DNA of 64,000 nt from Candidatus Sericytochromatia bacterium (lineage in GTDB: Bacteria; Cyanobacteriota; Sericytochromatia; UBA7694), in contig CAXRDE010000016.1 in the NCBI GenBank assembly GCA_964229355.1, positions 83,732-147,731 of the forward strand, given 5' to 3'. Shown piece after piece: positions 4,201 through 59,130 of the stretch. The notes beneath the pieces were generated by a model. The model was not told the origin of the DNA, did no database searches, and saw only the letters and a program-made list of their open reading frames with translations. How positions within the stretch are numbered: position 1 is the first letter of the stretch; each line of letters begins with the position of its first letter. The translations under genes were made by a program, and so were the position numbers.

Positions 4201-5287
4201 CATACAAAGCGGTAGCGTTCAGTTCGTCGGTATAGCCAACGGCCTGGGTAAATTTAACGTGTTCTTGCAGGTTTTGGAAGTTTTCAAAATTTCCCAGCCC
4301 CATTTCTTTGGCCACGGCGTCTTTGTAGGCTTTGCCGTCGACACGCTTACCATCTCGGTTAAGAATAAGTGCTTCACCGTTTTCGGCAATACCCGCATAC
4401 CTGAATCCCAATTTACTTGCCATTTTTTCGTTAAAGCTAACGGCGCCTGGAAGGTTGGGATTGTTAAAGTTAAGGCTCGCACGACCCACATACTGGAAGG
4501 GGACTTGCATTTCACGGCCCAGAATGGCTTCTGCCGTGGCGCCGTCATAGGTGGTATCACCTACCTGCTCACCGTTACCTAAAGAGGGGTAACCCTGACT
4601 TGTGTACTGTTGTACCAGGTGGCTGTTGCGATCTGCCTCTCCAGGCGTACGGGCGATGCGGTAGATTTTTCCTGCAGGCCCCGGGGTTTCTCCATTTTCA
4701 GGTTGCGTAACGGTTTCATTTCTGCGCTCGGGGTTATGGACGGGTACGGGTTCAAACACCGGCTCTCTTGGAGGAATAATCGGTGGGTCTTCAGGTGTTC
4801 TGCGTTCTTCGGGGCTGGGAAGAACGGTCCAGGTTTCTTTTTCGACCCGTGTATAACCCATGCCCACTTTGGCGTTGGGATCTTTGATCATTTCTAAGAA
4901 GAGGGGATCGATTTGGATTGCAGCCACACTGCGAGAAGGACCCACAATGGCGGCGGCCAGCTTGGCTGTAATACTCATAAAGCCTTCGTTGGATTCAGCC
5001 GTTTGGAATTCGCGGCGTACCTGTAAGCTCCCTTTCTCGTAAAGCTCTCGGGTTTGCTGAGGCGTTAGAAGTACATCTCCGCCTAAAGAACCAATGTTTT
5101 CAGGGGTTACCGTAACGATGTCTGCATCAACGAAGGCGCTTTCGGGAATGATGCTGCTACCGCGATAAAGGTTGTTACCTCCATCGGGACCCCGATATTC
5201 GGCCTGGGTTGTTTGAGAGGGGCGCATTTGCCCAATTCTATTTTGATAAGGGTTGCTGGCACCACCAACGCCGCTTACGCTGCTCAT
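1241..5287 (-). CDS. Giant Cys-free protein (1348 aa), unknown function; possible HxxEH motif and Arg-rich C-terminal tail
   Basis: Uninterrupted 4 kb ORF with SD GAGGAG 7-8 nt upstream of the ATG. No signal peptide and no Cys in the translation. Pro-rich stretch PPIIPPREPVFEPVPV. Motif EELFHHIEHHE. Tail RQRVQRDQANAQSAESRAQRVNDDRRSS. Confidence 0.85.
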   Translation of the reverse strand: MSSVSGVGGASNPYQNRIGQMRPSQTTQAEYRGPDGGNNLYRGSSIIPESAFVDADIVTVTPENIGSLGGDVLLTPQQTRELYEKGSLQVRREFQTAESNEGFMSITAKLAAAIVGPSRSVAAIQIDPLFLEMIKDPNAKVGMGYTRVEKETWTVLPSPEERRTPEDPPIIPPREPVFEPVPVHNPERRNETVTQPENGETPGPAGKIYRIARTPGEADRNSHLVQQYTSQGYPSLGNGEQVGDTTYDGATAEAILGREMQVPFQYVGRASLNFNNPNLPGAVSFNEKMASKLGFRYAGIAENGEALILNRDGKRVDGKAYKDAVAKEMGLGNFENFQNLQEHVKFTQAVGYTDELNATALYGQVAKQSPDQVQRHLRNMHDGFSLDNTRHEYFTASDLRQFPTGEGRTRLDDYRDATQNTPIPNDYLDEYQALYNSKNGTNLSLDDIRAANPSMMDMYALHAQTFQPSLGITFSNGKANVPEGSVDSVLNARIVLEANTSNGGEDQLLYGEDSVNIINDRVAQQFGGVTNMELRVADGNGQQTTVPAENIVEFLQFHDSSSHANAGADSIFNDVEADITQRYNAGTGGEDYTTVGNGFIPVAVDGGGGTVITGPTPASINAAINDNLNKLNAPGLSAESKQALLAGIEEQIQMLPPEQRGAQTLQVNGQSISPQDWLSDANGIRTQVIATADQEWPKSTVEGIHANTHVAETGGNYPPGTADRLMAEISGDIEQLEAQLQAAGDKPIMVTTAPPESEEIQLTPAYLEQLKNKAVMATDAMRLQEGQMIENNPQLFTPGEDGEPQLRSGIERANESLNQVKDYIRQKLRGGDITPEDQQELGGVIDSSSRNIFQALQEHGVVSGAYSPAAVTQVTPAQIREAVTDPAQAEAMIGAVENLKSATTMLGIVPELNLSAGINDGIHSLSQRTEVNHFENVELATKAFAGELKRVAELDDPAPFNSFMQNVYNLPAYDANNPTIAGHYDTLRAAASDGSLLTPPNIVAVDRSELNGANGAYVGGVDGGPGEIRVANDILQDQTKLNEVITEELFHHIEHHESVQGLNGGQETAGDEGRAALRALMALQSNPDISAADLASRAQEGRGEATAVQSGGNIHISGDDAGTIRENGQNRSIEFNATAQPSAQTPTEEQPPAQQSYTERLQNTAGVDMEIPDINPNPTRPMEEVSNAEAFNYVDPVQGQTPAPNEEAEGTSKMGQIVEGLPGLFKGWAAGTMQRAEALYDLAEKLFKQGVANNLGNASSLMNTAQSLNGYFNERPNFDLPQTAANYSLRPEYGDQNPETMSQGRDKYYNDHNRQRVQRDQANAQSAESRAQRVNDDRRSSTGVQSYT

Positions 5288-5402: not shown

Positions 5403-8400
5403 TTATAAGACAATACCATCCTGGGGTAATTGGGTAGAGCTTTGTGCTAACTCAAGACGCTCCACAAACTCTCGCATACTTTGAACAGGGTTACTAAAAG
5501 GGCTGCGAAGTTGCTGAATGGTTTCGGTCAACTGCTCCAACATATCCATTTGTTGTGCCTGTTCAATAATCATGCCAGGATTTAAGCCAATTAATACGGC
5601 GATATTGGCGAAGTTAGAGTCGCTGGCCACTGCAGATAGCAATTCGCTTTGGACTTCTTGCTGTTCACCGGTGGTTGCGGGGGTTGTATTCTCGGCGGAG
5701 CTGCCATTTGCATTACCCGTAGCACCAGCACCGCCAGCTCCACCAGCTCCACCAGCATTGCCAGCTCCACCAGCTCCACCAGCACCACCAGCATTGCCAG
5801 CTCCACCAGCTCCACCAGCACCGCCAGCACCGCCAGCACCACCAGCCTCACCAGCTCCACCAACGTCTCCTACGGCATCTCCATTGGTGCTGCCAAAGGT
5901 AACGCCCATTTCATCGGCATACTTTTGGGCTGCAGCCAATTGTTTGGTCGCGGCCTCCAAACGTACGCGCGCATCCTGGAGTGCTTCCATGGCTGCTTTA
6001 TAAGCCTGAATTCCAGGCAGTAGAGCGTTAAGGGTTTCACCCAGGAAGCGGGTGCTTTGGTCCAAAAAGGAACCAAGTCCTTCACCAAAACGCTGTGCAC
6101 CGTTTTGCTCTTCATCGCCATATCGGCTACGCAGGCCGCCTTCGGCCTGAGCAAGCGTTCGCTGGCTTTGAGCCTGTTGTTCTGGTGTCGCTTCTGTACC
6201 ATCAGCAGCTACTGTTGGCCCATTGGAGTTTACATCAACGGTAAATTCTCCCGAGTTTCCGCGTTGAGTGACGTTTACATTGACGGTGCTACGCGTTCCT
6301 TCAGCATTGGTAAACGCCACATTGGTCGCTTGTACTTGAGAAACGCTACCGTCAAAGCTTGCGCCCACTTCAACCCGTCCCAGTGCACTACTGGGGTTAA
6401 ACCGAATCTCTCCAGCAGTGTTTACACCAGCGCCGAGATCCTGAAGGGTAATGCTTCCCCGGTCTAACCCTTCGCTCTCCACGAATCCGTCTAAAATATC
6501 TTGTGCAAGCTTTGTGTCCTTAGCGGTTAAAGCTGCCTGAAGATTTTGTCGGGTTTGGGCAATGCGTTCCGCTTTATCCGCATCTCCCACTTGCACAAGC
6601 GCCTGTGCGTTTTCATCCCCTGTCAGGGCTTGTATGCCCAGGGTCTGAAATTTCACCGAAGCGTTTGCATTGTCAAAAGAGTTGATTAACGCTCTTTCAC
6701 TGCTCACCACGTTATTGTACTGAGTCGCAGCGTTACGTTGGGTTTGTGACTGGAAATTGAGGCGGTTATCCTGAATCACTGCATCGGTCAACTTTTGTAC
6801 TTTTTGTTCGTCATTGACGCCAGCCTGTCTAATGACTTCACTGATGGCTCTTCTCGAATCATCTGTGTTGATGTTACGCAAGGCGTTGTTTTGCAATATA
6901 TTGCTGCTCTTGATATCTTCAATAACTTTCTTAGATGTCTCTTGATTGATTCCGTTTGCCTTTAGAGCTGCAGAGAGGTTTTCGCCCTGTGCGTTGAGCC
7001 TTCCTTTTTGTTCTACCAAACGCTCGGCCGTAATGCTCGCATCGGTTTCGCTCAGCCCCTCTGAGGTTAAGAAGTTGCTCAGTAGCTCTCTTGCCTTTTC
7101 TGGCTGATTTTGTTGAAGTGCAGCGAGAAAATTTTGATCGTTATTGGCTTTATTTAAAGCATTTGAGATATTTGCATCCCTTCTGTTAGCTCCCGTGGTC
7201 TCGCCACCGATATACACGTTCAACTCATTTAGTACAGGTGCCAGGGCTTCTCTTTGCTCAGCGGTTAAGCCCCGAGTATTGAGACGAACGCCTCCATTTT
7301 GGTCAACACCGTAGCCAATATCAAAGTATTGACCACCCAGGTCAAAACGTAGACGACCTTCTTGCTCAAAATTATTGTTGAAGCTGTTGTTGTCATCTCT
7401 TCGTAATGCACTGGTGTTGTTGTTGCGCTCTACAACTTGAACGTTGGTTGCCCCAAAACTCGCAAGTTTATTTTCAAAACCTTTCTTTCGTTGCGCGGCG
7501 TTAAAGAAGTCTGAGCTGCCTTGAATCGACTGTGTACCGGCCTTATCACCAGAGGCATTAACAATCGCTAGCTCACCACTGGCTGCATCACGCTCCAGTT
7601 GAAGCTTCGTACCGTCATTGAGTAAAACACCCGCAGAATAAATGTTACCTTCGCTATCATATTTTAAATTAACACTTTGGACCGATTCACCTGACTTGAA
7701 AATGCCAAAGTCCACCTGGAAAGCGCGATTGAGTTCTGCCGTCAGTTCCCGTGCGGCCTTTTCATTTCTCTCAAATTTCTCCGTAAAGGCTGCTTTATCT
7801 TGTCCCAGAGCTTCAGCAAGATCTCCTGCTGCATTGGCATTATCTGGTCTACCAGGTCCACTGTTGGGACCGCTGATGCCTGTGAACCGGCTAAACGCAT
7901 CGCTAACACGATCTCCGAAATTGCGCTCTCTTCCAGGCTCGTTACCTTCTGTGATTTTGCCATCTGCACCAATGGTAAAACTTCGGGCTGGGTTATTAGG
8001 ACCGTTGGCAGCAATGTTGATAGAAATACTTCCATCGCTATTTGCGACACGTTGGGCTCCAGACAAGTCAAGACCAGCGGCCGTTAAAGAACGCAGGGTC
8101 TGTTGCGCATCTGAGCTGGCGCCCGGTAATTCTCCACCCTGTAACTGATCGTTGTTTTCTTGTCGGACCTCGCCTGTAGTCGTTCCGATCCGCTGTTGAA
8201 TTTGCTGGCTGTTTAGAGGGGTTGCTCTAAGGTTTCGGTTTTTACCTTCCGGATCTAAATAGTCGGCAATAATCCGATTGTACTTTGCGGCATTTTTTTC
8301 AGCCACCCCAGCGTTTTCGTTTGCAAACTCTTCGAGGGTGCGTTGCTGGCCATCTCTGCCGATAATACCTTCTACATTCCCCTGAGCGTTAAATACCAGG

Positions 8401-11400
8401 TCGTTGACGTCGATTCGTCCGAGACCTAAGCCCCCATCAAGGGTGTTTTTGCTTAGGCGGTTGGCAATTTCCTGGCGAACGCCTTGTTCAATATCGCCCT
8501 GGCTTTGTTGTCCACCCGTGCCTGAGGTTCCGGTAACGGTGACCTGGTTTTGACCGTTTTTGTTTGTGGTAAAGCTACCTACTGCGTTGCCACCCTGGCC
8601 GTTGTTGATCAAGCCAGCAAGAGCAGCATCTGCCTCAGCGCTTGTCCCTCTATTTACAATGGCTTGTACTGTTCTATTTTGTTCGTCACCACTTGTTGTC
8701 AAACCAATGCGTGCTTCGAGTGCCCGACCCAGTTGACGTTCGTTGACAGATCCGTTGTTGTTTAAGATTTGCCCGATCTGTTCGCTGTTAAAGCCCAGCC
8801 CTTCCAAAAATTTTGTTTTATCTGTTCCTGTTTTATTCAGCTCACCAATAACGGCCTCTGACAGTTGGGCTTGCGTGTTTTCACGCAGATCTGAGGTGGG
8901 ATCGCTTAAGCCCTGCTGACGTCCAGGAAAACCGCCGAAAAATTCATTGGTCAGTCTGTCGTTACGGTTGCTCGCCCTTGCATCGCGAAGGGCAGACTCC
9001 ACGTTACCAGACCCTGAAAAAGCAGCAGAGAAAGCGGCGCGTGTATCAATTTGATCAGGTCTGTTGAGATTAACACCAAGGGCTCTGCGCTCGCTACGGT
9101 TAAGGTCTCCGTTGGCGGCATCTTTAATGGTTTGGTTTGAGAGTTGTTCTTGACCCCCGCTGGGAGTCGTCACCAGTCTACCATTTCCAATGGCCCGGTT
9201 ATCGATGGTCAATTGAACCGAATTGTTACGATCCCCAATGGTTGCTGATTCCTGGCTGCGGGCGTTTGCGTCAAAGTTGAGGTTAAGATTGTTGTTACCA
9301 TCTCGGGACAGGTTAAGGCCTGCACTGACCGCATTATTGATGCGACCTTTCTCACGGCTGTCTACGCCGACGGTTCCGTTGAGAACGTTCAGGGCGTTTT
9401 TGTTGATGGTAAAGTTACCCTGATTTAGGTTGGCGTTGCCACTGATTGTTATGCCGCCACCTTTTTTAGCATCATTCTGGCTCACCGTGCGGCCGTCTCG
9501 AAGGGTCACCTCACCATTAATGACGCGTGCACCTTTAAGGGCTTCTACGCCGTTGTTTTCAGCAAGTTTATTGACCTGTTCCAGAAGCGCTTTGTTTGCG
9601 TCACTCACTTCGGGCTCTTCGGTGGCTTTTGCGATGCCTTCTGCCGTTGCGGGAGTTTCATTGGTCTCGCTACCGGTAACGTTTTTTGGAGGATCTCCTG
9701 TCGGGTCAGCGGTAGCGTCTGCGCTGACGCTACCGTCCCCGACAGGGGTTCCGTTTGGATTTGCAAAACGCGCTTTGATTTCATTTTGTGCGTTGACATC
9801 ACCTGCTGCAGCACGGGATAAAGTATCTTTGCTAATATCTACCGCTACACCGCTGGCGTTGGTCAGGGTGACATTGTCGCCGTCTTTCACGGTAGCGGTC
9901 AAGGATTGACCTATTTGCTGACCCACTACATTTCCTAAAAATGCCTGTACACCCTGATCTGCCCGGCTCTTTACGTCTGCGTCAGAAAGCTCTTCGCCGT
10001 TTGACTCTGCCTGGACGCGTACACGCCTTTGCAACGATTCTCCAAGACGTGTCTGCGAGCTGGTAGAAACAGCACCCGTGTTTTCTAACTCATCGGCAAT
10101 TTCTTGCTCGTTGCCCTCAAGGTTGCCATTGACGTTTTCTTGGGCATTGGCAGTAGCTGTAGAGAGAGCACGTCCGGGCAATGTGGCAACCCCAATCAGG
10201 GGGTTGACCACAGTGTCGCGAATGGCGCTGCCAATAAGGCCGTTGGCATTGGGGTCACTCACTGCATAAGCCAGGGCATTAATCCCCTGACCCAGGCGGG
10301 CAAAACGACTTTTGGGCTTTTCTGACCCGCTCATTTCATTGAGCTTTTTGAACAGCGCAGCGATCATTTTGAAAAGTTCACCCAGTGCGCTCGGACCTTC
10401 AGGACCATCTTTGATCCCAAGGACGTTAAGCGCTTTGGCGGCACCGTTAGAAACTCTTTCTGAAAAAGAATTGCCCTCTTCATCGGTTTGAGCAGTTGTT
10501 CCACGGTTTTCAATAACGCCTGTATTTGTATCATTGTCTACCGCAGCACTGGCTCGTCCTTGTGTGGTGGAAACAACAAGGTTTTCATCATCTCCGGTGG
10601 TATTTTGATTTTGAGGTGCTGCCGGTGATACTTCATCACCGTTTGTGCTATTGTCTACAGCGTCACTGGTCTGTCCCGGGGTGGTGGTAATGGCGGTACC
10701 GCCGCCATTTGTGTTATTTTGTACGTTGGTATTTACTGGGTTTGCCCCATCATTTTCCACCGCATCAGAGTCGCTGGCTAACGCGTCGGTGTTATCTGTG
10801 GTGTTATTCCCTGTAATGGCGTCGCCACTTGCCCCAGCATTGGTATTTGCCGCGTTAGTGTTACTGTTGCCGTTGAGCACCTCATTAATGGCCGATTGCA
10901 CACGCTGTGTAAGGCCTTCTTCATTAATCGGACCCTCTGCGTTCTCTTCCTCTTGAATGACGGCGTCTACGCGCCCGCGGATTTGTTCTTGTTGCTCGGA
11001 GCTAAGGTTGTTTTCTTCATTGCCCAGTACACTGTTGACGGCGTCTTTGACCCGCGCCAAAATTCCGGCTTTATCTTCGGCATCTGCACCGGGTGCTTCT
11101 GTTAAGTTCTGATCTTCATCATCTGAGGCAATGGCCTGGTCTCGTTGTGGGTTAAGGGTGTCTTGAATGGCTGTGGCGACACGATCGAGTAATCCCTGGT
11201 TGGCGGGACGGGTGACGGTTTGAGTGGTCGAGTTATTTGTGTTGGTCTCGTCGTTTGCATTGGTCTCTTCAACAGGGGGATTGTTCCCCTCTTCTTCATT
11301 GCCGTCTTTGCCCTTGAACTTGTCTGTAATGGCGTTAATAAAAAAGGCTTCTTTAAGAACCTCTATTAAATCTCCCCCGAACCCGCGATCTTCTTGTCTT

Positions 11401-11747
11401 TGATTCGTTGCGGGATCATTGGCGTTTACATCTTCGTCTTCCTGGGCTTTGTTAATACCTTTACCAATTCGGTTGGCAACAAAGGTGGTCACCATTTGTA
11501 AGGTGGCCAGGCCCACTTGTTTTGCGGCAATAGCGGCTTGTTTTTCGGCCAGTTGTTTTGCACTTTTAGCAGCGTAAAGCTCCATTTCGGCTTTGCGCTT
11601 GGAACGGATCTGGGTGTTTTTATCCACCTTATCCATAATGTCTTTGTTGTCATCGTTGACCTGGCGGGTAACCTGTTGAATAGCGCTGGCGACGTTGCGG
11701 GCACGGGTTGTGGCTTCGCGAGCGGCGGTATACATCCGAATGTTCAT
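5403..11747 (-). CDS. Giant secreted- or surface-type protein (2114 aa), unknown family; shares N- and C-terminal modules with the 389-aa upstream gene
   Basis: 6.3 kb ORF with SD AAGGAG 7 nt upstream of the ATG. No signal peptide. No Cys, Trp or His by my reading. N/Q/G/T/S/D-rich with beta-helix-like stretches (GITISGNANLNQGNFTINKNALNVLNGTVGV). Gly-Ala repeat near the C-terminus. Confidence 0.85.
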   Translation of the reverse strand: MNIRMYTAAREATTRARNVASAIQQVTRQVNDDNKDIMDKVDKNTQIRSKRKAEMELYAAKSAKQLAEKQAAIAAKQVGLATLQMVTTFVANRIGKGINKAQEDEDVNANDPATNQRQEDRGFGGDLIEVLKEAFFINAITDKFKGKDGNEEEGNNPPVEETNANDETNTNNSTTQTVTRPANQGLLDRVATAIQDTLNPQRDQAIASDDEDQNLTEAPGADAEDKAGILARVKDAVNSVLGNEENNLSSEQQEQIRGRVDAVIQEEENAEGPINEEGLTQRVQSAINEVLNGNSNTNAANTNAGASGDAITGNNTTDNTDALASDSDAVENDGANPVNTNVQNNTNGGGTAITTTPGQTSDAVDNSTNGDEVSPAAPQNQNTTGDDENLVVSTTQGRASAAVDNDTNTGVIENRGTTAQTDEEGNSFSERVSNGAAKALNVLGIKDGPEGPSALGELFKMIAALFKKLNEMSGSEKPKSRFARLGQGINALAYAVSDPNANGLIGSAIRDTVVNPLIGVATLPGRALSTATANAQENVNGNLEGNEQEIADELENTGAVSTSSQTRLGESLQRRVRVQAESNGEELSDADVKSRADQGVQAFLGNVVGQQIGQSLTATVKDGDNVTLTNASGVAVDISKDTLSRAAAGDVNAQNEIKARFANPNGTPVGDGSVSADATADPTGDPPKNVTGSETNETPATAEGIAKATEEPEVSDANKALLEQVNKLAENNGVEALKGARVINGEVTLRDGRTVSQNDAKKGGGITISGNANLNQGNFTINKNALNVLNGTVGVDSREKGRINNAVSAGLNLSRDGNNNLNLNFDANARSQESATIGDRNNSVQLTIDNRAIGNGRLVTTPSGGQEQLSNQTIKDAANGDLNRSERRALGVNLNRPDQIDTRAAFSAAFSGSGNVESALRDARASNRNDRLTNEFFGGFPGRQQGLSDPTSDLRENTQAQLSEAVIGELNKTGTDKTKFLEGLGFNSEQIGQILNNNGSVNERQLGRALEARIGLTTSGDEQNRTVQAIVNRGTSAEADAALAGLINNGQGGNAVGSFTTNKNGQNQVTVTGTSGTGGQQSQGDIEQGVRQEIANRLSKNTLDGGLGLGRIDVNDLVFNAQGNVEGIIGRDGQQRTLEEFANENAGVAEKNAAKYNRIIADYLDPEGKNRNLRATPLNSQQIQQRIGTTTGEVRQENNDQLQGGELPGASSDAQQTLRSLTAAGLDLSGAQRVANSDGSISINIAANGPNNPARSFTIGADGKITEGNEPGRERNFGDRVSDAFSRFTGISGPNSGPGRPDNANAAGDLAEALGQDKAAFTEKFERNEKAARELTAELNRAFQVDFGIFKSGESVQSVNLKYDSEGNIYSAGVLLNDGTKLQLERDAASGELAIVNASGDKAGTQSIQGSSDFFNAAQRKKGFENKLASFGATNVQVVERNNNTSALRRDDNNSFNNNFEQEGRLRFDLGGQYFDIGYGVDQNGGVRLNTRGLTAEQREALAPVLNELNVYIGGETTGANRRDANISNALNKANNDQNFLAALQQNQPEKARELLSNFLTSEGLSETDASITAERLVEQKGRLNAQGENLSAALKANGINQETSKKVIEDIKSSNILQNNALRNINTDDSRRAISEVIRQAGVNDEQKVQKLTDAVIQDNRLNFQSQTQRNAATQYNNVVSSERALINSFDNANASVKFQTLGIQALTGDENAQALVQVGDADKAERIAQTRQNLQAALTAKDTKLAQDILDGFVESEGLDRGSITLQDLGAGVNTAGEIRFNPSSALGRVEVGASFDGSVSQVQATNVAFTNAEGTRSTVNVNVTQRGNSGEFTVDVNSNGPTVAADGTEATPEQQAQSQRTLAQAEGGLRSRYGDEEQNGAQRFGEGLGSFLDQSTRFLGETLNALLPGIQAYKAAMEALQDARVRLEAATKQLAAAQKYADEMGVTFGSTNGDAVGDVGGAGEAGGAGGAGGAGGAGGAGNAGGAGGAGGAGNAGGAGGAGGAGATGNANGSSAENTTPATTGEQQEVQSELLSAVASDSNFANIAVLIGLNPGMIIEQAQQMDMLEQLTETIQQLRSPFSNPVQSMREFVERLELAQSSTQLPQDGIVL
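5721..5865 (-). repeat. In-frame GC-rich tandem repeat encoding (GAG/GNA)n inside the 2114-aa gene
   Basis: Plus strand shows reiterated ccagctccaccagc(a/t)(c/t)(c/t)gcc units. It translates to GGAGEAGGAGGAGGAGGAGNAGGAGGAGGAGNAGGAGGAGGAG. Confidence 0.8.
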
Positions 11748-11801
11748 ACGGTGAACTCCTTTGGTTTTGTGCTTTCAGGAATAAATCATACTTAAGAAAA
11801 A

Positions 11802-12971
11802 CTAGGCTGGACTTGCGCTAGAACCTGCTGCCAACAAGGCCTCTAGTTTTTGTAACTTCTGCAGGGCTGCAGCAGCTTGTTTTTTGGCGGCCTGATATTC
11901 TACGACGGCATCTTGATATTCTTCTTCATACTGTTTAGCGACACTGTTCATGGCCATAAACTGGTTGAGAGAGGTGCCAAGGGGTTTAAAGAGAACTTTT
12001 TGGAAAGCATCTTTTGCACCCTCACCGAATTTATTAATCACATTTTTCTCTTTGAAGATGTTTTCAGCTTGATTGGCCACGCGATCGTCAATGTTCAGGC
12101 CTCTTTGAATATTTTCGTTTCGCAGCAAGCCCAACGCGCTTTGCGCACTTTGGCGGTAAGCGGGGTTGATTTGCGTGGAGCGACTGAGCATTCCAGCGGC
12201 CATGCGCTCCCCGGCATCGCTTCCTACGGGGGTTGTACTGCCTTCTACAGAGCGTGAACCCTGAGCAAAAAAGCCGTTTTCTCCAAATAACTCACCCCGC
12301 AAGGCGTCGCTCATGTTACCGGTGGCCGGATCTAAATCGCCAGGATTAAAGGCGGGGGGTGGGCCTTCTTGTAGCATGGCACGCAGCGGACTGCCCTCAG
12401 GGGTGTTTTCCAATAAATTGCGAGCCATTTCGGTCTGAGAGACGTTTTGAAAGCCCTCCACCTTACCTGTGGTGGTGTTAACCCCCATAATCGAAAAGTT
12501 TCTTTGAGAGGGGTTATAAGATACAACGGCGCCTTCCTGACTGTTCCCGCCTGCGTTTGCAATTTGAAAAGAAACGGCATATTTGTTAATGTCTGCATTG
12601 CTCATGGGGGCGAGCTGGCTGTCGTCAGACACCTGTCGCTCATCTTTATTGAGCATGTCTGCGACGCCGTCCAAAATGCCTCCACCGAGGGTGCCAAGTA
12701 GTACAAGGGCTGCTGCATCTTTGGCGCGCTCCATACGATCCTTTTTGAGCTGCATCATTTTTTCGGCTTTTTCTTTTTTGATGTCAGCGCTTTTGGCTTC
12801 ATATTCGGCTTCAATCTTGCTACGCATTAATTCGTCTTTGCGTTGTGCATTGGCGGTGCCCACGGTTTTTACATCGTCTTGCACGGCTTTAATGTTTTGA
12901 CCCTGGTTTTGATGGAATTGGAGGGCCGCATCTGCAGCCTGGCGGGCGTATTCAAATGACATAAAGCTCAT
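11802..12971 (-). CDS. Cys-free 389-aa protein, 'mini' paralog of the 2114-aa protein (same N and C modules)
   Basis: SD GAGGAG 10 nt upstream of the ATG. N-module RSKIEAEYEAKSADIKKEKAEK followed by the hydrophobic Gly-rich AAALVLLGTLGGGILDGV. C-module KFGEGAKDAF...YQDAVVEYQAAKKQAAAALQKLQ. Both align by eye to the 2114-aa protein. Confidence 0.8.
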   Translation of the reverse strand: MSFMSFEYARQAADAALQFHQNQGQNIKAVQDDVKTVGTANAQRKDELMRSKIEAEYEAKSADIKKEKAEKMMQLKKDRMERAKDAAALVLLGTLGGGILDGVADMLNKDERQVSDDSQLAPMSNADINKYAVSFQIANAGGNSQEGAVVSYNPSQRNFSIMGVNTTTGKVEGFQNVSQTEMARNLLENTPEGSPLRAMLQEGPPPAFNPGDLDPATGNMSDALRGELFGENGFFAQGSRSVEGSTTPVGSDAGERMAAGMLSRSTQINPAYRQSAQSALGLLRNENIQRGLNIDDRVANQAENIFKEKNVINKFGEGAKDAFQKVLFKPLGTSLNQFMAMNSVAKQYEEEYQDAVVEYQAAKKQAAAALQKLQKLEALLAAGSSASPA

Positions 12972-25205: not shown

Positions 25206-25267
25206 ACTAAAGCCTCTTTTTGGGGTTCATCATACCATGAAGACTTTTTGACAATGTGAAATTGCGC

Positions 25268-25296
25268 TTGAGCAAGCGACATAAATGTGCTATAGT
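25268..25296 (+). promoter_or_regulatory. Possible sigma70-type promoter for the CorC/CNNM gene
   Basis: TTGAGC, 17 nt spacer, TATAGT, about 40 nt upstream of the TTG start at 25338. Confidence 0.3.
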
Positions 25297-25337
25297 CAGG
25301 GCATCCATTTTGAAAATTCAGGAGAAAACGTCTTAAT

Positions 25338-26663
25338 TTGGACCCCGACAGTAGTGGCCAATTTGGCTCCGTAATTACCGTTCTTGTTGTCTCTTTAGCG
25401 TTCTCTGGCCTGATCTCAGCCTATGAGGCTTCCCTCACGGATTTATCGAGCATGCGTCTTGAAAAACGTGCTGAAGAGGGAGACCAAAGGTCTGCCTATC
25501 TGCTAAAACTCATTCAAAACCCCCATCACACTTTGCTCACGCTTATGGTCTCTGATTGGCTTGCTGACGTCACGGTGATGGTGTTGAGTGCGTATCTCAT
25601 TTTTCACGCCCTGGGGGCCTGGAGCTGGTGGCATGTGGCTGCTGCCATTTTCGTTTTAACCCCCACACTCTTGATTTTGGGCGAAATCATTCCTAAAAAT
25701 ATTGCCTCGCGTTACGGTGAGCGCTTTGCCTATGCCTGGTTGCCTTTGCTAAAGCTTTTGCTGTTGGTGTTTAGCGTGCCTGTTAAGGTGTTGAGTTTAA
25801 TTACCCGTCCGCTGTTAGAGAGTGTCGGGGCACAACTGGGGCAACTCCTGCCCGAGTTTACCGAAGACGAAATTTTACATATGGTGAGCATGGGCGGCAA
25901 TACCGGGCTTTTAGAAAAAGATGAAACCGAATTGGTGCAACACGCGCTCAATTTTGACGATACCCCCGCCAGTGCTGTTCTGACACCACGGGTGGATATG
26001 ACTTGCTTAGAAGATACCACCACCCTTGAAGAAGCGCTCACGTTAATGGCTGACCCTGAAGGGTATTCACGTCTTCCGGTCTACCGAGATAACTTTGATA
26101 ATATCCTCGGGATTGTCTACATTAAAGATTTGCTTTCGGTGTACCAAAAGCATCCTGAACAGCGCCAAAACCCTGTGATTGATTATGTGCGTAAAGCCCA
26201 TCATATTCACGAGTACCAGCCCATTAATGAGGTGCTTAAAGAAATGCAAGCCCTGCGCACACCCATGTTCATTGTTACCGATGAATACGGGGGGACTGTG
26301 GGGCTGATTACCATGGAAGATTTACTGGAAGAGATTGTAGGGGAGTTACATGATGAGTTTGATCATGATGAAGAAGCCCCCATTGAAAAAGTAGACATGT
26401 ATACCCTGCGCGTGGATGCGAAGGTGAGTGTGACTGAAATTAATAATCTCCTGGATCTGGATTTGCCCAACAGTCAATCGGTGGGCGGTCTTGTCTTTAG
26501 TACGCTGGGTGAAGCACCCGGTCCCGGAGAAGTGATTCACATTCAGAATGTACGCCTGGAAGTGGAAGCCGTGGACGGCATTCGTATTTTACGGGTGCTG
26601 GTGCATAAATTGACCCCTGAAGAAATCGAAACCCAGGCAGAAGCAGAAACCTCCTCCACCTAA
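25338..26663 (+). CDS. CNNM/CorC/HlyC-family transporter (DUF21, CBS pair, CorC_HlyC)
   Basis: N-terminal TM block, CBS region (VLTPRVDM...LPVY...[11 protein letters not shown]) and C-terminal transporter-associated domain. TTG start with AGGAGA upstream. Confidence 0.8.
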
Positions 26664-28276: not shown

Positions 28277-28855
28277 TTAACTCAGGCCATTCAAAACAGC
28301 TTTTGAGATGGCTTTAAGCGTGGCAAAAACACCCTGACCGTTGACAGCAACTGCCTCAAAATAGGGCACTCTCTCAGGGTTCAGGTCGTTTTCTAGTTCT
28401 TCGACGGGCATTGAGTCAGGAATATCGCGCTTATTGTATTGAATAATCCAGGGTATTTTACCCAGAACCATACCGTAAGAAGCCAGGTTCTCAATCATGT
28501 TGGCTTTGCTATCAATATTTTCTTGCTTCTTCTTGCGAGAAGAGTCAGCCACAAACACGAGACCGTCGGCGCCGTTCAAAACGAGACGACGGCTGGCGTT
28601 GTACTCTACCTGCCCTGGAACAGTATAGAGCGAGAACTTGGTTTTAAATCCTTGCACAGACCCCAGGTCTAAAGGCAAGAAATCAAAGAACAGGGTGCGT
28701 TCATTGGCTGTGTTTAGCGATACCATTTCACCCCGAATGGTGGGACTGAGTTGTTTATGTAAGTATTCTAAGTTGGTCGTTTTTCCACCCATACCGGTTC
28801 CGTAAAAAACCAGTTTACAGTGAATTTCGCGACTCGCGTAGTTAATTAGCGCCAT
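28277..28855 (-). CDS. mglA: Ras-like small GTPase MglA
   Basis: Close to the MglA consensus: INYASREIHCKLVFYGTGMGGKTTNL, ERTLFFDFLP, LYTVPGQVEY, IQYNKRD. Confidence 0.9.
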   Translation of the reverse strand: MALINYASREIHCKLVFYGTGMGGKTTNLEYLHKQLSPTIRGEMVSLNTANERTLFFDFLPLDLGSVQGFKTKFSLYTVPGQVEYNASRRLVLNGADGLVFVADSSRKKKQENIDSKANMIENLASYGMVLGKIPWIIQYNKRDIPDSMPVEELENDLNPERVPYFEAVAVNGQGVFATLKAISKAVLNGLS

Positions 28856-28867
28856 AGTCTTTTGTCC

Positions 28868-29293
28868 TTATCTCCGATTTCCGCCACTCATACTGGAGAC
28901 CTCGTCGCTGATGCGTTTGGCCATCTGTTGGGTCTTGAGCTTAATCATTCCCAATGTGGTTTTCTCATCAAAAATAACGGTGATCAAGTCCTGAGAGTCA
29001 AGCAGAGAGATAAAGATATTTAAGTTATCACCTTGCTGGAACATGGTTTTAAATTCGGCTTCGCCAAGCAGTCTGGCAATCTCACGGGTGGAGGAGAAGG
29101 CGCCCACGACGAGGGCTGAGAGCGCCATCACGTGAGGAGATTCTTCACCTACAAGTGCAAGATGTTGTCCGCTCTTTTCAACAAGCAGAATAGACTTTGC
29201 ATTGGTTTCGGATTGCAGTTCGGTAAGTAACTCCGTAATGCGCTGAATGCCTTCAGGAGTTATCACGAGACTGCTAAGTTGAGGATTTAACAT
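28868..29293 (-). CDS. mglB: Roadblock/LC7 protein (MglB-like GAP)
   Basis: 141 aa, Roadblock-like pattern (SILLVEKSGQHLA...ALVVGAFSSTREIA), immediately upstream of mglA. Confidence 0.75.
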   Translation of the reverse strand: MLNPQLSSLVITPEGIQRITELLTELQSETNAKSILLVEKSGQHLALVGEESPHVMALSALVVGAFSSTREIARLLGEAEFKTMFQQGDNLNIFISLLDSQDLITVIFDEKTTLGMIKLKTQQMAKRISDEVSSMSGGNRR

Positions 29294-29308
29294 AGCTTGT
29301 GCAACCTG

Positions 29309-30196
29309 TCATAGTTCTATTTTTAATTCTTTTACCCAATGCTGAGTCGTGTCCGGAAAGACACGCTCAACTTTATTGATAACCTGCTGAAGAAATGTTT
29401 CTCCGTAGATCGGGGTGATCAGTTTTAACAAATGATTCAAGCAGATACTGTAAAGCTCAGTCTGTTCCACCAAACTCAAACTTTGTAATTTATCATCCAC
29501 AATGATACCATCTTGTAGCTCGATCATCCAGTTTTTTTCTTCAATCAGCTTTTCGAGCCGCTCATTCATCTCCTGTTTTAGTTTTAAACCACTGATGGAG
29601 TTGAACTCATTGAGCAAAGTGTTCGCCAGGGTCAAAAAGAAGCGTCGCAGCGCTGTGCTGGCCTCTTCTTTCAATTGGACAACGCCTTTGGCTTCTAAAG
29701 CGACGAGGGTTTCAATCACACCAATGGGGTCTTCTGGTACTTGATCCAGAAGTCCATGCAGCGCGACAGGCCCGTCAAAAGCTTTTAAGTGCTCAATCAG
29801 TGTGCTGTTTTGCAACGCGTCGGGAGACCCCAGGTACTGAACGTGGGTGTTAGGCGCAAGGGTGGGATATTTGCGCTGGATTTTTTTCCAGGTTTCGACG
29901 TAGATAATGCCTTGTTGAATCAGGGTGTCTAAATCACTGGAAATGGTGGGTTCAGGCAGTGTGGTTTCTGTTAAAAAGTCGAAGGTGGCACTGCTGCCAT
30001 AATTCAACATCTCATACACCGCAGCCTGTCCTGACAGTTCAGGCGTCTCTGCGTGAGACACCTTGCCGTCATGGACAAAAATACGACTCGTTAGCCCTTC
30101 AAACTCAATCACCAACTCGCCGGTTTTCTGACTGTCAATGAGGATCCTGAGGATATCGGGTAGGCTAAAGTCTGCAAATCTTCCGCTGAACTTCAT
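29309..30196 (-). CDS. DUF4388 / PATAN-domain protein
   Basis: N-terminal FSGRFADFSLPDILRILIDSQKTGELVIEF...RIFVHDGKVSHAE matches the DUF4388 pattern. 4-nt overlap with the upstream gene. Confidence 0.7.
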   Translation of the reverse strand: MKFSGRFADFSLPDILRILIDSQKTGELVIEFEGLTSRIFVHDGKVSHAETPELSGQAAVYEMLNYGSSATFDFLTETTLPEPTISSDLDTLIQQGIIYVETWKKIQRKYPTLAPNTHVQYLGSPDALQNSTLIEHLKAFDGPVALHGLLDQVPEDPIGVIETLVALEAKGVVQLKEEASTALRRFFLTLANTLLNEFNSISGLKLKQEMNERLEKLIEEKNWMIELQDGIIVDDKLQSLSLVEQTELYSICLNHLLKLITPIYGETFLQQVINKVERVFPDTTQHWVKELKIEL

Positions 30197-33334: not shown

Positions 33335-34018
33335 TTAAGCTGATCGCTTTTGGGGAGTTTTGCTCGATTGACGGTTCATTTCTTCCAGTTCGGTGAGTAA
33401 ACGAGAAGCCTGATGGCGACTCATGTGTTTCCAACTGGATTGACTGGTTTGTAGATAAGATTTAAGCTGCTCACTGGTCCAACCCAGTTTTTGGCACAGG
33501 GTCTTAATATGCTCTTTTTGGGCGGGTGTGGCTTCAGCTGGTGTGGTGTTGCTCTGCCGTGAACTGTTGATATAAGCGGTCAGATCGCGGATTTTTCGAC
33601 CCTGATCGTCGGCGGGGGCATAGCGGGGTTTGCCGCGATCGTCTGTGCCGTTTTCGACGGCTTTGACCCGTACCGAGGGTAGGCTATACAGAAAGCGTCC
33701 AATGCCCCATTTCACAGCGGCGCGTTTGAAAGCGTCACTGGCCTGGCCTTTTTCGGCTTCAAACTGGGATTGGCTCCCGCAATCTGATTTGGTAATCCAG
33801 GTGTTATCCACGCGGAGCGACAGATCGCAATACACGTTGCCCGCGACCTCTCGGTAATGATCTTGCCAATTTTCAGGTCCCATGACTTCATCGAGAAGAT
33901 CCATCACCTGACGGGCGTCGATGTAAGCGACACAATCGCACCCCCAGGAACGGGCGCTTTGGACTTTCCAACGAAAGGGAATTTCTTGCTTCAGGGCTTG
34001 AAGGGATGATGTTGTCAT
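33335..34018 (-). CDS. Rad52/Rad22-type single-strand annealing protein
   Basis: Core WQDHYREVAGNVYCDLSLRV...KGQASDAFKRAAVKWGIGRFLYSLP matches the Rad52/Sak/DdrA signature (KGAxSDAxKRAAxxFGIGRYLY). Confidence 0.75.
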   Translation of the reverse strand: MTTSSLQALKQEIPFRWKVQSARSWGCDCVAYIDARQVMDLLDEVMGPENWQDHYREVAGNVYCDLSLRVDNTWITKSDCGSQSQFEAEKGQASDAFKRAAVKWGIGRFLYSLPSVRVKAVENGTDDRGKPRYAPADDQGRKIRDLTAYINSSRQSNTTPAEATPAQKEHIKTLCQKLGWTSEQLKSYLQTSQSSWKHMSRHQASRLLTELEEMNRQSSKTPQKRSA

Positions 34019-49673: not shown

Positions 49674-50813
49674 ATGACGATATCAATCTCTATTGTTCCT
49701 GAAAAATTTTATACCTCCGAGGAGGTCAGTGAGTTTTTGCGGCTCTCTTTGCGAACCGTGCAACGCTTGCTTGCCAATCGTTCGCTGAATGCTTACAAGA
49801 TACACGGTCAATACCGTATTAAAGGCTTAGATCTTCTCCGTTATTTAGACAGCACCCGTCAGGATGATCAGCCACCTGCGCCGCAAACCCCTGCCCGTTA
49901 TACCGAATTTTTGAATGTGCACCCTTTAACGTTGCGTGTGGGTCAAGGTTGGTTGCCGCTAATAGAGGCAACCCCTGATTCTGAGGTACCCCAGACCTTA
50001 ATGGATCGCTTACCCGCTTTACGCCAGGATGTGGTAAAGACTCTGGGGTTTGTGCTACCGGGTCTGCGTGTGGAAGATAACCTTTCCCTTGCAGAAAGCG
50101 ATTTTGAAATATTTTTACAGGGAGTCTCTGTGTTGAAATCGACAACGGTTTCGCTCGTTGAGCCGCAGCTTGCTCTGGACGCCCTGGTAGACAGTTTAAA
50201 GCGTGTGGTCTGTCGCCACGCCCATGAAATGCTTTCCCGTGATGATGTGGCGGTTATGGTTGAAATGATTCGTGAAAAGCGTCCTGTGGTGGTAGAAGAA
50301 GTGATGCGCACGGAGTTGAATCCGCAGGGGCTTACGCTGGGGCAGCTCACCCAGGTCTTGCGCTATTTGCTCAAAGAGAGCGTGTCCATTCAACATATGG
50401 GGCTCATTTTAGAGGGGCTTGCAGACCACTTAACAGAAATGCCTTTAGATGCCCCCGTAAACAGTCAGCTCGGTGAAGCCTTGCGCCAGTATTTGTGCCG
50501 TCAAATCAATGCACCTCTGGCCAATGCTGAGGGCATTATTGAGGTGTTAACCCTTGATCCAGATTTAGAGCAGTATCTGGAAGCCGGGGCTCAGGGAGGG
50601 CAGCCAGATGATGCTTTTTATACGGTGCTCAACGGTGTGCGTACACAGCTCAAGGAAGCGCCTGCTTCAGTCATTATTTGTAGTCTGCCATTGAGACGTT
50701 ATTTGTTCAGTGCTTTGTACCGTCATTATCCGCAGGTTACCGTCCTGTCTTATCAGGAGATCCATGAGGATTATCGGGTCAAGCCCTTACTGAGTTTGGT
50801 TAAAGGCGTGTGA
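49674..50813 (+). CDS. Excisionase/MerR-type HTH fused to an FlhA/SctV (FHIPEP) C-terminal cytoplasmic domain; no TM region
   Basis: HTH: FYTSEEVSEFLRLSLRTVQRLLANRSLNAYKIHGQYRI. FlhAc-like: LTLRVGQGWLPLIE...LPALRQDVVKTLGFVLPGLRVEDNLSLAESDFEIFLQGV; LGQLTQVLRYLLKESVSIQHMGLILEGLADH; VIICSLPLRRYLFSALYRHYPQVTVLSYQEI. These parallel Salmonella FlhA MEVGYRLIPMVD...IRKKFAQDMGFLPPVVHIRDN, LTTLHKVLQNLLAEKVPIRDMRTILETLAEH and LLVNHALRPLLSRFLRRSLPQLVVLSNLEL. Confidence 0.75.
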   Translation: MTISISIVPEKFYTSEEVSEFLRLSLRTVQRLLANRSLNAYKIHGQYRIKGLDLLRYLDSTRQDDQPPAPQTPARYTEFLNVHPLTLRVGQGWLPLIEATPDSEVPQTLMDRLPALRQDVVKTLGFVLPGLRVEDNLSLAESDFEIFLQGVSVLKSTTVSLVEPQLALDALVDSLKRVVCRHAHEMLSRDDVAVMVEMIREKRPVVVEEVMRTELNPQGLTLGQLTQVLRYLLKESVSIQHMGLILEGLADHLTEMPLDAPVNSQLGEALRQYLCRQINAPLANAEGIIEVLTLDPDLEQYLEAGAQGGQPDDAFYTVLNGVRTQLKEAPASVIICSLPLRRYLFSALYRHYPQVTVLSYQEIHEDYRVKPLLSLVKGV

Positions 50814-56753: not shown

Positions 56754-56917
56754 GCTTCATCCTCCTCCAGAGGAAGGTGCCCCAGGTAATCGTAGAGCAC
56801 TCCCCGGTTTTTTTGCATTACAAATAACACCATGATCGTAAAGAAGCTAAAGAAAATCATTAAACCCAAAAGCGATAAGTGGGGCATATGAAATAAACGC
56901 ATGACTTCTGACTTCAT
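56750..56917 (-). CDS. ccoQ: CcoQ/FixQ-like small membrane subunit (55 aa)
   Basis: Not in the track (<60 aa). Manual translation: MKSEVMRLFHMPHLSLLGLMIFFSFFTIMVLFVMQKNRGVLYDYLGHLPLEEDEA. ATGA overlaps at both ends (ccoNO stop, ccoP start). Confidence 0.7.
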   Translation of the reverse strand: MKSEVMRLFHMPHLSLLGLMIFFSFFTIMVLFVMQKNRGVLYDYLGHLPLEEDEA

Positions 56918-59130
56918 TCTTTTCCTCCTGCGGCCACAGCCGTGACGGCTTCCGGCACAAAATCACTACTGGGTTTGCCCAGGCGCTGTAGGTAGGCAAT
57001 CAAGGCGACCACCTCGCGTGATTCAAGCTCGGGGTCTTGAACACCCCCTTCTCTCAGGCGATCGCTAATAACTTTGGCCTGTTGCTTTGCGTGCTCTGAT
57101 GCTTTGGCGACCTCTTCATCGCTGTAGGGAACACTCAGGGTTTGCATGACGCTCAGTTTTGAGGTCAGGCTGTCAAAGTCGGTTTGATCTTTGGCCAACC
57201 AACCATAGTTGGGCATAATGGACTGAGGCACAATATCCCGAGGATTGATCATATGGCGGAAATGCCACATGTCGGGGTATTTTGATCCCACGCGGGCCAG
57301 ATCTGGCCCTGTACGTTTAGAACCCCATTGGAAAGGCCGGTCGTACTGCGATTCTGCGGCAGTGCTGGGCTTTCCGTAGCGGAGGGTCTCATCCATGGTG
57401 GGGCGAATCATCTGGGAGTGACAGGTATAGCAACCTTCACGCACAAAGATGTCTCGGCCAGCCAGTTCCAGAGAGGTATAGGGTTTATGGGCGGTGCTGC
57501 GGGGCATAAACTCTTGCATGGTTAGCGCAGGAATAATTTCAATAATTGAACCTACCAACACAGCGAGAATGGTCAGAATACTGAACACTGCGGGTAAACC
57601 TTCCAGAACGCGATGGGCATGGTGGCCCAGTTCGTTGGCGGGAATTTTGTCTACACTGGCTAAAGCATAGGCTTTATGGGTTTGCTCTTCAGGAACATGA
57701 CCCGATTTAACGGTTTTATACAGGTTGTAAATCATGATGATAAAACCTGCAATAAAGAGCAGTCCGCCAATGGCGCGTACCCAGTAAAGGGGGACAATCC
57801 GGGTGACGGTTTCAATAAAGTCGGGATAGGTCAAGGTGCCTTCGGCGTTGAGTGCTCGCCACATCAGGCCCTGGGTAATCCCTGCGGCCCACATCGAAAG
57901 CATATAGACGCCGACGCCAGAAATGCCCAGCCAAAAATGGGCGTTCGCCAGTTTGTCACTGTACAGTTTGGTATTCCAGAGCTTGGGCACCAGATAATAC
58001 AGAATGCCGAAGGTTAAGAGGCCGTTCCAACCCAGAGTGCCCCCGTGAACGTGACCGATGGTCCAGTCTGTGTAGTGGCTCAGGGAGTTGACGGCTTTAA
58101 TAGAAAGCAGAGGGCCTTCAAAGGTCGACATACCGTAGAAGGTAACGGCCGCCACCAGAAATTTAATGGTGGGATCCGTACGTAAACGGTCCCAGGCACC
58201 CCGCAAGGTGAGCAGACCGTTGATCATACCGCCCCAGCTGGGGGCCCACAGCATAATGGAGAGCACCATACCCAGGGTTTGGGCCCATTCAGGCAAGGCG
58301 GTATACAACAGGTGGTGTGGACCGGCCCAGATATAGATAAACACCAGCGCCCAGAAGTGAATGATCGACAGGCGATACGAATAAACGGGGCGTTTGGCTG
58401 CTTTGGGGATGTAGTAATACATCAAGCCCAAAAAGGGAGTGGTCAAGAAAAAGGCCACGGCGTTGTGACCGTACCACCACTGTACCATGGCATCTTGAAC
58501 CCCTGCATACACCGGGTAAGATTTCAAGAAGCTGACGGGCAGCGCCACGGAGTTTACCACGTGGAGCAATGCCACCGTAATTAAGGTGGCAATATAGAAC
58601 CAGATGGCCACATAAATGTGACGCTCTCTGCGTCGAAACAAGGTGGCAAAAAAGTTCACCGAAAAAGCAACCCAAACCACGGTAATGGCAATATCAATGG
58701 GCCACTCCAATTCAGCATACTCTTTGCTGACGGTATACCCCAGCGGTAGGGTAATGGCCGCAGCCAAAATAATGGCTTGCCACCCCCAAAAGTGAATGCG
58801 ACTTAGCGTATCTGAAAACATGCGTGTTTTTAAGAGGCGCTGTGAGGAATGGTAAATTCCCATGAAAATGGCATTTCCGGCAAAGGCGAAAATAGCGGCA
58901 TTGGTGTGCAATGGGCGTAAGCGCCCAAAGGTTAACCACGGAATATTAAAGTTAAAGGGCCAGTAGGCCAATTGGAGCGCAGCCAGTAAGCCCACCACAA
59001 AAGAGATCAGAGCCCAACCTACGGTGGCGTAGGCAAAGTAACGGACGATTTGGTCATCGTAGCGAAAACTTTCGGGTTCCGGCTTTAATGGCATGGCTGC
59101 GTTATCAAGCGAATGATCAACGGTTGACAT
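56914..59130 (-). CDS. ccoNO: Fused cbb3 oxidase subunits I+II (CcoN-CcoO)
   Basis: 738 aa. Haem-copper oxidase helices with the His ligand region (GHVHGGTLGW; HFWALVFIYIWAGPHH), followed by the CcoO-type segment with CYTCHSQMIRP. Confidence 0.9.
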   Translation of the reverse strand: MSTVDHSLDNAAMPLKPEPESFRYDDQIVRYFAYATVGWALISFVVGLLAALQLAYWPFNFNIPWLTFGRLRPLHTNAAIFAFAGNAIFMGIYHSSQRLLKTRMFSDTLSRIHFWGWQAIILAAAITLPLGYTVSKEYAELEWPIDIAITVVWVAFSVNFFATLFRRRERHIYVAIWFYIATLITVALLHVVNSVALPVSFLKSYPVYAGVQDAMVQWWYGHNAVAFFLTTPFLGLMYYYIPKAAKRPVYSYRLSIIHFWALVFIYIWAGPHHLLYTALPEWAQTLGMVLSIMLWAPSWGGMINGLLTLRGAWDRLRTDPTIKFLVAAVTFYGMSTFEGPLLSIKAVNSLSHYTDWTIGHVHGGTLGWNGLLTFGILYYLVPKLWNTKLYSDKLANAHFWLGISGVGVYMLSMWAAGITQGLMWRALNAEGTLTYPDFIETVTRIVPLYWVRAIGGLLFIAGFIIMIYNLYKTVKSGHVPEEQTHKAYALASVDKIPANELGHHAHRVLEGLPAVFSILTILAVLVGSIIEIIPALTMQEFMPRSTAHKPYTSLELAGRDIFVREGCYTCHSQMIRPTMDETLRYGKPSTAAESQYDRPFQWGSKRTGPDLARVGSKYPDMWHFRHMINPRDIVPQSIMPNYGWLAKDQTDFDSLTSKLSVMQTLSVPYSDEEVAKASEHAKQQAKVISDRLREGGVQDPELESREVVALIAYLQRLGKPSSDFVPEAVTAVAAGGKE

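Follow-up and report, generated by a model that had tools for sequence, protein, structure and literature searches.

A predicted mini and giant protein pair with shared end modules around different cores in Candidatus Sericytochromatia

The Sericytochromatia, a non-photosynthetic lineage without cultured members, are the sister group of the oxygenic cyanobacteria, and to our knowledge hardly anything has been learnt about their cell biology. A 64,000-nucleotide (nt) stretch of a Candidatus Sericytochromatia genome (assembly GCA_964229355.1, contig CAXRDE010000016.1, positions 83,732-147,731 of the forward strand; hereafter the window) carries two adjacent genes predicted to encode proteins of 389 and 2114 amino acids (aa), here called the mini and the giant. 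A preliminary description, made by eye, had proposed that they are short and long versions of one scaffold, in which conserved terminal helical modules enclose a replaceable core. The question raised by this locus is whether the ends of two proteins so different in size are homologous or merely alike in composition, and, if they are homologous, what kind of structure such proteins could build.

End modules and cores of the mini and giant proteins

Both open reading frames (ORFs) were found at the positions and with the lengths first reported (Table 1). Pairwise comparison by BLASTP aligned the C-modules (mini residues 307-369 with giant residues 1879-1940, 24 of 63 identical, E 1e-4) and, with a much weaker score, the N-modules (residues 1-71 with 1-69, 22 of 71 identical, E 0.042). 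Searching the single giant sequence with a profile built from 30 minis recovered the C-module only (E 0.0026). When the first family profiles were compared with each other by hhalign, the C-modules matched over 69 columns with a probability of 95% (E 2.3e-8) and the N-modules with a probability of 23% (E 8.6e-4), against E-values of 0.11-0.58 for mismatched controls. The hidden Markov model (HMM) scores were then set against those of 3000 composition-preserving decoys, including 10-residue block shuffles. The C-module score lay above virtually all decoys, block shuffles included, while the N-module score was reached by 1-2% of the block shuffles (p ~0.01-0.02), so that the N-terminal similarity could at that stage have reflected local composition.

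With distant relatives included in the profiles, hhalign matched N with N over 102 columns (residues 3-110 with 4-105) at a probability of 94.6% and E 7.1e-8, and C with C at 93.9% and E 1.6e-7, while mismatched N versus C controls gave E ~0.06 and a probability of ~1%. The merged N-module alignment contains a single 2-residue gap, keeps the register originally proposed, and has two invariant positions, R50 and A62. Among 2508 six-frame ORFs from the window and 22 related loci, the HMMs of each family found only members of the other, at the right position. Intermediate sequences also exist: the small protein of one distant locus (L020) begins with MSIESLRAAREASDAALQFQQGQ, in which the N-terminal motifs of mini and giant are combined. 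From the profile matches, the controls and the specificity of the cross-family HMMs, both modules are therefore concluded to be homologous between mini and giant. The supposition that two unrelated proteins merely share K/E/A-rich helical ends, to which the pairwise N-terminal E-value and the block shuffles had lent some weight, is refuted by these tests, by the collinearity of the matches from residue 3 or 4 onwards and by the intermediate sequences, and we regard it as extremely improbable.

No similarity between the cores was found, either by BLASTP or with the mini profile searched against the giant, as the preliminary description had stated; its estimates of core length, ~170 and ~1700 aa, were slightly short of the ~195 and ~1765 aa measured here. 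The two proteins are thus paralogues of one superfamily, at whose level the proposed scaffold, a common plan of N-module, variable core and C-module, holds. Scans of Pfam, NCBIfam, the PDB and Foldseek databases revealed no characterised domain that the modules match.

The mini family of Sericytochromatia comprises proteins of ~390-450 aa, with source names from metagenome-assembled genomes (MAGs) of Candidatus Sericytochromatia, and all 30 homologues could be aligned end to end. In the AlphaFold2 (AF2) model the N-terminal helix spans residues 6-94 and the C-terminal one residues 334-384; the hydrophobic segment of the N-module occupies residues 86-104 (nt 12660-12716), with a Kyte-Doolittle hydropathy (KD) of 1.73. 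The core is conserved in all 30 homologues, with invariant columns and the motifs VNTTTG, GPPP.F and GFFAQGS. Over residues 120-310 it is modelled with a confidence (pLDDT) of ~76-92, which falls to 57 in a single block, residues 241-250. A Foldseek search with this model (mean pLDDT 69.8) yielded no match, the best E-values being 0.56 against the PDB and 0.27 against BFVD, and a PDB sequence search with the mini profile was empty. As modelled, the mini core is a small folded domain without a representative in Pfam, NCBIfam or the PDB. The notion of a replaceable core therefore needs qualification: it suits the giant core, and the comparison between distant lineages, but not the minis within the Sericytochromatia, whose core is a conserved, folded domain.

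The giant contains no Cys, Trp or His. Its N-module, with 42 columns invariant across the class, includes a hydrophobic segment at residues ~75-96 (nt 11460-11525). Compared with its closest orthologue (P0031), the N-module is 84% identical and the C-terminal region 73-81%, and the minis of the same two genomes share 78% identity, but the giant core retains only ~20% identity over residues 100-400 and mostly 40-50% over residues 400-1900; in comparisons with distant giants only patches of it can be aligned. The core thus diverges much faster than the modules. A self-BLAST detected no internal repeats, and a PDB sequence search with the giant was empty. When seven giant orthologues, five distant members and 22 N-modules were scanned against Pfam and NCBIfam, nothing rose above noise except two matches. 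One is a PG_binding_1 domain at residues 282-320 (38.3 bits), shortly after the N-module, of an orthologue encoded on a 29-kb contig (P0035), the only recognisable domain in any giant core; the other is a borderline HEAT_2 match in the core of a distant member (P0052).

In two respects the ends differ from what had been proposed. The C-module of the giant, modelled as helices at residues 1887-1908 and 1910-1946, is not terminal, since ~165 residues follow it, comprising a short conserved MGVTFG motif, a Gly/Ala-rich linker and a five-helix tail. Both the length and the sequence of the linker vary among giant orthologues; in the window it is encoded by a tandem repeat at 5723-5862 with a period of 9 nt (15.6 copies) or 36 nt, coding for GAGGAGGAGN. 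The tail is missing from minis and from short distant members. An AF2 model of the giant C-terminal region (pLDDT 53.6) gave no fold match in Foldseek, tail included (best E 1.2). Furthermore, the K/E-rich part of the N-terminal helix, described as amphipathic, is not so, its hydrophobic moment being low (0.1-0.3), and moderate amphipathicity was detected only at giant residues 7-42 and in the first helix of the C-module.

Table 1. Genes of the cluster in the window and the parts of their predicted products
Feature	Residues	Nucleotides	Strand	Description
Mini gene	389 aa	11802-12971	-	ORF
Mini N-module	1-110	12642-12971	-	Long charged helix from Met1, then Gly-rich hydrophobic segment
Mini core	111-306 (~195 aa)	12054-12641	-	Conserved alpha/beta domain (predicted)
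Mini C-module	307-389	11805-12053	-	FKPLGTSLNQFM, then long helix reaching the C-terminus
Giant gene	2114 aa	5403-11747	-	Start 54 bp downstream of mini stop
Giant N-module	1-110	11418-11747	-	Charged helix (net +7), then hydrophobic segment
Giant core	111-1875 (~1765 aa)	6123-11417	-	N/G/A/T-rich, fast-evolving
Giant C-module	~1876-1950	5898-6122	-	Helix, kink at LLPGIQ, second helix
Giant Gly/Ala-rich linker	1951-2025	5673-5897	-	GAGGAGN-type, disordered in AF2 model
Giant-only C-terminal tail	2026-2114	5406-5672	-	Conserved five-helix domain, pLDDT ~80
Second giant gene	1348 aa	1241-5287	-	No Cys; own conserved N-domain; shared modules absent
Second giant N-domain	~56-198	4694-5122	-	Conserved
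382-aa protein gene	382 aa	13087-14235	-	Upstream of mini; one clear transmembrane helix, residues 90-108, KD 2.85
276-aa TPR protein gene	276 aa	14244-15074	-	Upstream of the trio in close relatives only
829-aa protein gene	829 aa	15157-17646	-	TPR/winged-helix protein, putative regulator; upstream of the trio in close relatives only

Distribution and gene neighbourhood

An exhaustive HMMER search of 1.84 billion representative proteins with the giant N-module returned 23 matches. The distant giants among them are 851-2285 aa long and begin with the N-module at residues ~3-105, followed by quite different cores and a recognisable C-module at the end. On two distant contigs a small protein is encoded directly upstream of the giant (301 aa in L019 and 289 aa in L020), and the HMM of the Sericytochromatia minis matches the N- and C-modules of both but not their cores. 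When GTDB was scanned with each species represented by a single genome, 12 loci emerged, every one of them belonging to Sericytochromatia, Blackallbacteria or UBA7694. One of the distant relatives was recovered from a MAG that bears the name Cyanobacteriota bacterium; giants of this type are solitary, with no mini upstream, and a metagenome scan with the distant N-module profile recovered two loci only, both of the same solitary type. With the profile of the giant N-module, a word-indexed search yielded two fragments only and, owing to a limitation of the index, missed known giants. Altogether, the family is rare and lineage-restricted, being found only in basal, non-photosynthetic Cyanobacteriota, namely Sericytochromatia, Blackallbacteria, UBA7694 and a few unclassified MAGs.

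In the window, the genes for the 829-, 276- and 382-aa proteins, the mini, the giant and a 1348-aa protein, here called the second giant, form an unbroken run on the minus strand. In all 17 Sericytochromatia-type loci the giant gene comes after the mini gene, and in each of the nine loci that are long enough a homologue of the second giant is next; an order of a mini, a giant and a large protein was also observed in two distant Cyanobacteriota loci. The second giant was considered as a third copy of the modular scaffold and rejected, as it has no HMM match to the modules. Its own N-domain carries the motif ESNEG...VGPS.S..AI.IDP.FLEMIKDPNA..G.GYT at residues ~70-165, followed by a Pro-rich linker, and an HHIEHH motif lies near residue 1010. 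No known family was matched by the second giant, and PDB sequence searches with the profile of its N-domain and with the merged N-module profile were empty. The third gene of the distant loci was likewise tried as a homologue of this N-domain and rejected for lack of detectable homology.

Upstream of the trio formed by the mini, giant and second giant genes the neighbourhood is less constant. The TPR protein is absent from three loci that retain the mini-giant pair (L001, L004 and L008). The conservation of the 382-aa protein is limited to close relatives, and elsewhere the same-strand upstream gene encodes a lipoprotein or a PD40/CarboxypepD_reg protein; these neighbours are mutually non-homologous, and all are envelope proteins. 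A proposed homology between the 382-aa protein and the 330-aa upstream protein of L004 was rejected. None of the 389-, 2114- and 1348-aa proteins could be assigned to a Pfam or NCBIfam family, and the 382-aa protein gave sub-threshold matches only. The 829-aa protein, which combines TPR repeats with a weakly AAA-like N-terminus and, at residues 606-660, a winged helix of the OmpR type, may be the regulator of the cluster. A scan for promoters and terminators stayed near the shuffled expectation (19 versus 13.3 promoters and 28 versus 25.2 terminators) and was uninformative.

Contig CAWCRG010000015.1, from a Sericytochromatia MAG, carries the whole cluster (regulator, TPR, 382-aa, mini and giant genes) twice, in convergent orientation (L006 and L011). 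The second copy contains almost no long ORFs, which could be due to decay or to long-read indel errors.

Several other genes of the window deserve mention. A single 738-aa ORF at 56914-59130 (-) combines COX1 (CcoN-like) and FixO (CcoO) domains, representing a fused cbb3-type oxidase subunit, and is adjoined by FixG-like, DsbD_2 and P-type ATPase genes. A 227-aa protein encoded at 33335-34018 (-) contains a Rad52/Rad22 domain (E 1e-12), which is unusual in bacterial chromosomes outside prophages. At 28277-30196 (-), the gene for a 192-aa Arf/Ras-like small GTPase adjoins that for a DUF4388 (PatA_N-type) protein, and the pair could constitute an MglA-like polarity or motility module.

A possible membrane-anchored envelope system

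The reading that we favour, at a rough probability of 0.4, is that the two paralogues, mini and giant, are envelope proteins anchored in the membrane in N-in orientation, whose modules would provide anchoring and pairing and whose fast-evolving, Cys-free cores would lie outside the membrane. It is preferred because of the position of the hydrophobic segment, its hydropathy in distant giants, the charge pattern around it, the absence of Cys, the PG_binding_1 domain and the same-strand upstream gene, which always encodes an envelope protein. The homology of the modules, the conserved gene order and the fast divergence of the giant core count in its favour as well. A hydrophobic segment rich in small residues occurs at the same position in the mini and giant families, with KD values of 1.25-2.08 in Sericytochromatia giants and 1.14-1.78 in minis (for reference, a transmembrane helix would be marked by KD of at least ~1.6 over at least ~19 residues). 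No other stretch of the distant giants is as hydrophobic as this segment (KD 1.87-2.07, ~22 residues). The charges are distributed as in positive-inside anchors: the net charge before the segment is +7 in the giant and +2 in the mini, and after it -5 and -3, respectively. Cys is absent from the mini, the giant, the second giant and the 382-aa protein, as well as from ~24,800 residues of ten related giants, against a background of 1.0% in other ORFs of the window. Insertion through a terminal module, which the preliminary description had derived from analogies with translocators and flagellar proteins, is thus consistent with a segment of fixed position and KD 1.9-2.1 in distant members, but the analogies themselves fared badly, as discussed below.

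In this arrangement a positively charged helix of ~75 residues, starting at Met1, would precede a ~20-residue Gly/Ala/Val-rich segment (within residues ~75-105) acting as an N-in signal-anchor, and the Cys-free cores would be located beyond the cytoplasmic membrane, in the periplasm or the cell wall. The C-module would form a Pro-kinked helix-helix unit of ~70 residues. The shared modules could allow the mini and the giant to pair or oligomerise, with a first contact through the juxtamembrane helix and a bundle of small-residue transmembrane segments, and a second through a coiled coil of the C-modules. In such an envelope structure the mini could then act as the constant partner, with the giant as the component that varies and is displayed.

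Several observations weigh against this reading. In the proteins of the window itself the anchor is marginal: the N-terminal segment of the giant, which includes Q, T, N and R, is at the low end of the range, with KD ~1.25 or less in the closest homologues, and that of the mini, despite its hydropathy, is Gly-rich and modelled with pLDDT <50. The PG-binding domain is present in one orthologue only, and the core of one distant member contains HEAT-like repeats, which are usually cytoplasmic.

The marginal hydropathy and polar residues of the segments in the window and the HEAT-like repeats of one distant member, together with the absence of a signal peptide and the long helices modelled by AF2 at low confidence, could be accommodated if the proteins were cytoplasmic or membrane-peripheral scaffolds, in which the modules would serve coiled-coil oligomerisation and the hydrophobic segment would be a buried interface. 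Such scaffolds would, however, leave unexplained the length (~22-25 residues) and hydropathy (KD ~2) of the segment in distant members, the agreement of the flanking charges with the positive-inside rule and the PG-binding domain, and a total absence of Cys would be unusual over ~25 kb of cytoplasmic protein. We therefore consider this possibility unlikely.

The trio amounts to ~4000 residues of Cys-free protein and was found in every Sericytochromatia-type locus retrieved. Its constant presence, the extreme conservation of the terminal modules and the fast evolution of the core therefore make it likely that the trio is a major component of the envelope or surface. The family is uncharacterised and corresponds to nothing described so far; its function is proposed here with modest confidence. 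The resemblance between the two proteins first noticed by eye is real, and is better supported than a reading of the sequence by itself could show. It defines two sequence modules and a small, predicted folded domain that are new, having no counterpart in Pfam, NCBIfam or the PDB, offers a clean natural case of paralogues that have kept their ends but exchanged the part in between, and makes the trio a handle for work on Sericytochromatia by cryo-electron tomography, proteomics and heterologous expression.

Comparison with known systems

The preliminary description had pointed to flagellar axial proteins, and one could hypothesise that the mini and giant are exported self-assembling subunits that follow the logic of flagellin and the hook-associated proteins, with terminal helices packed in the core of an extracellular or periplasmic filament and the variable centre displayed. 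Like flagellin and FlgK/FlgL, they have conserved terminal helices and a central part whose length varies widely; from Met1 onwards these helices are conserved on every face, beside a hypervariable centre, and Cys, Trp and His are missing, as is typical of flagellins. The two genes are adjacent paralogues with common ends, as are flgK and flgL. Foldseek also names flagellin and junction chains among the hits of the mini model, but only at E 1.3-3.5 and with TM-scores of 0.10-0.18, the model helices being of modest confidence. No Pfam or NCBIfam match to Flagellin_N/C or Flg_bb_rod/Flg_bbr_C was obtained, and neither flagellar genes nor an export apparatus were detected among the ORFs scanned in the window or in the gene-called loci. 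Moreover, axial proteins have no hydrophobic segment after the N-terminal helix, and the giant carries extra domains beyond its C-module. What is left of the likeness is conserved termini around a variable central region, which is a general design feature and no proof of membership in the flagellar family, and an assembly of the flagellar type seems doubtful.

One further gene of the window has been counted in favour of a filament. It encodes an orphan 379-aa protein (49674-50813 (+), 38 kb away) in which an excisionase-type helix-turn-helix (HTH_17) is fused to the cytoplasmic domain of FlhA/SctV (FHIPEP positions 456-655, E 9e-44), with no membrane domain. Its occurrence near the cluster is a curious coincidence, with nothing linking the two. 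A literature search for Sericytochromatia in connection with secretion systems or flagella, and for FHIPEP in cyanobacteria, returned nothing relevant. Locus L019 contains a weak FHIPEP-like ORF as well (25220-25576), 8 kb downstream of its mini, giant and large-protein genes.

A broader proposal, speculative and quite unlikely in our estimate, would make the trio the structural core of a hitherto undescribed envelope or surface structure specific to Cyanobacteriota, in which the paralogues co-assemble via their end modules by the logic of flagellins or pilins but without homology to them, the rapidly diversifying giant core is displayed, and the HTH-FlhA_C protein is possibly a relic or regulator of recognition of the type III secretion system (T3SS) kind.

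The second analogy of the preliminary description, with the T3SS translocators (SctE/SseC-like), is one of layout only, and no link by sequence, fold or neighbourhood was found. The proteins would in that case be pore formers analogous to SctE and SctB, chaperoned by the TPR protein and inserting into a target membrane. Adjacent genes, a charged N-terminal helix with a Gly-rich segment of moderate hydrophobicity after it, a helical C-terminal part and, in some genomes, a TPR gene nearby do recall SctE/SctB (YopB/YopD, IpaB/IpaC); in the window the 276-aa protein, two genes upstream, has at least six TPR repeats and a sub-threshold match to LcrH/SycD (52.6 bits versus a cutoff of 104.8). However, neither the mini nor the giant had any Pfam match at E <=0.1, PF04888 (SseC) included, and a single match to one of the 22 N-modules (E 0.043) is noise. 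The central two-helix transmembrane hairpin is absent: there is one N-proximal segment at residues ~75-105, and a weaker second one in the C-module is ~240 to 1800 residues away. Injectisome genes (SctV, SctN, SctC and others) were found neither among the window ORFs scanned nor in the gene-called loci, the TPR gene is missing from more distant loci that retain the trio, and lengths of 2000-3000 aa are far beyond those of translocators. No secretion system was recognised among the ORFs scanned in the window. A translocator function is accordingly very unlikely.

Substrates of type VII secretion systems provide another parallel. Like PE/PPE and LXG/WXG100 proteins, the giant has a small conserved helical N-domain before a very large, Gly/Ala/Asn-rich variable region, and the genes are adjacent and paired, with helical domains that would pair as well. 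Unlike them, the mini and giant also possess a C-module and an anchor-like segment, and their hosts are diderm Cyanobacteriota. No Pfam match to the PE, PPE, LXG or WXG100 families was obtained, and no EccC-like or other type VII secretion genes were present in the gene contexts.

Finally, the proteins can be compared with bitopic N-in envelope proteins such as FtsB/FtsL, which pair by way of transmembrane and juxtamembrane coiled coils, and the periplasm-spanning anchors of the TolA type. Without homology to those families, they differ from them in having a long conserved helix that would lie on the cytoplasmic side before the anchor and a second helical module far downstream. What they have in common with these anchors is a probable single N-proximal membrane segment, a large part outside the membrane and a possible pairing of partners through helices, to which the distant members add K/E/A-rich extended regions.

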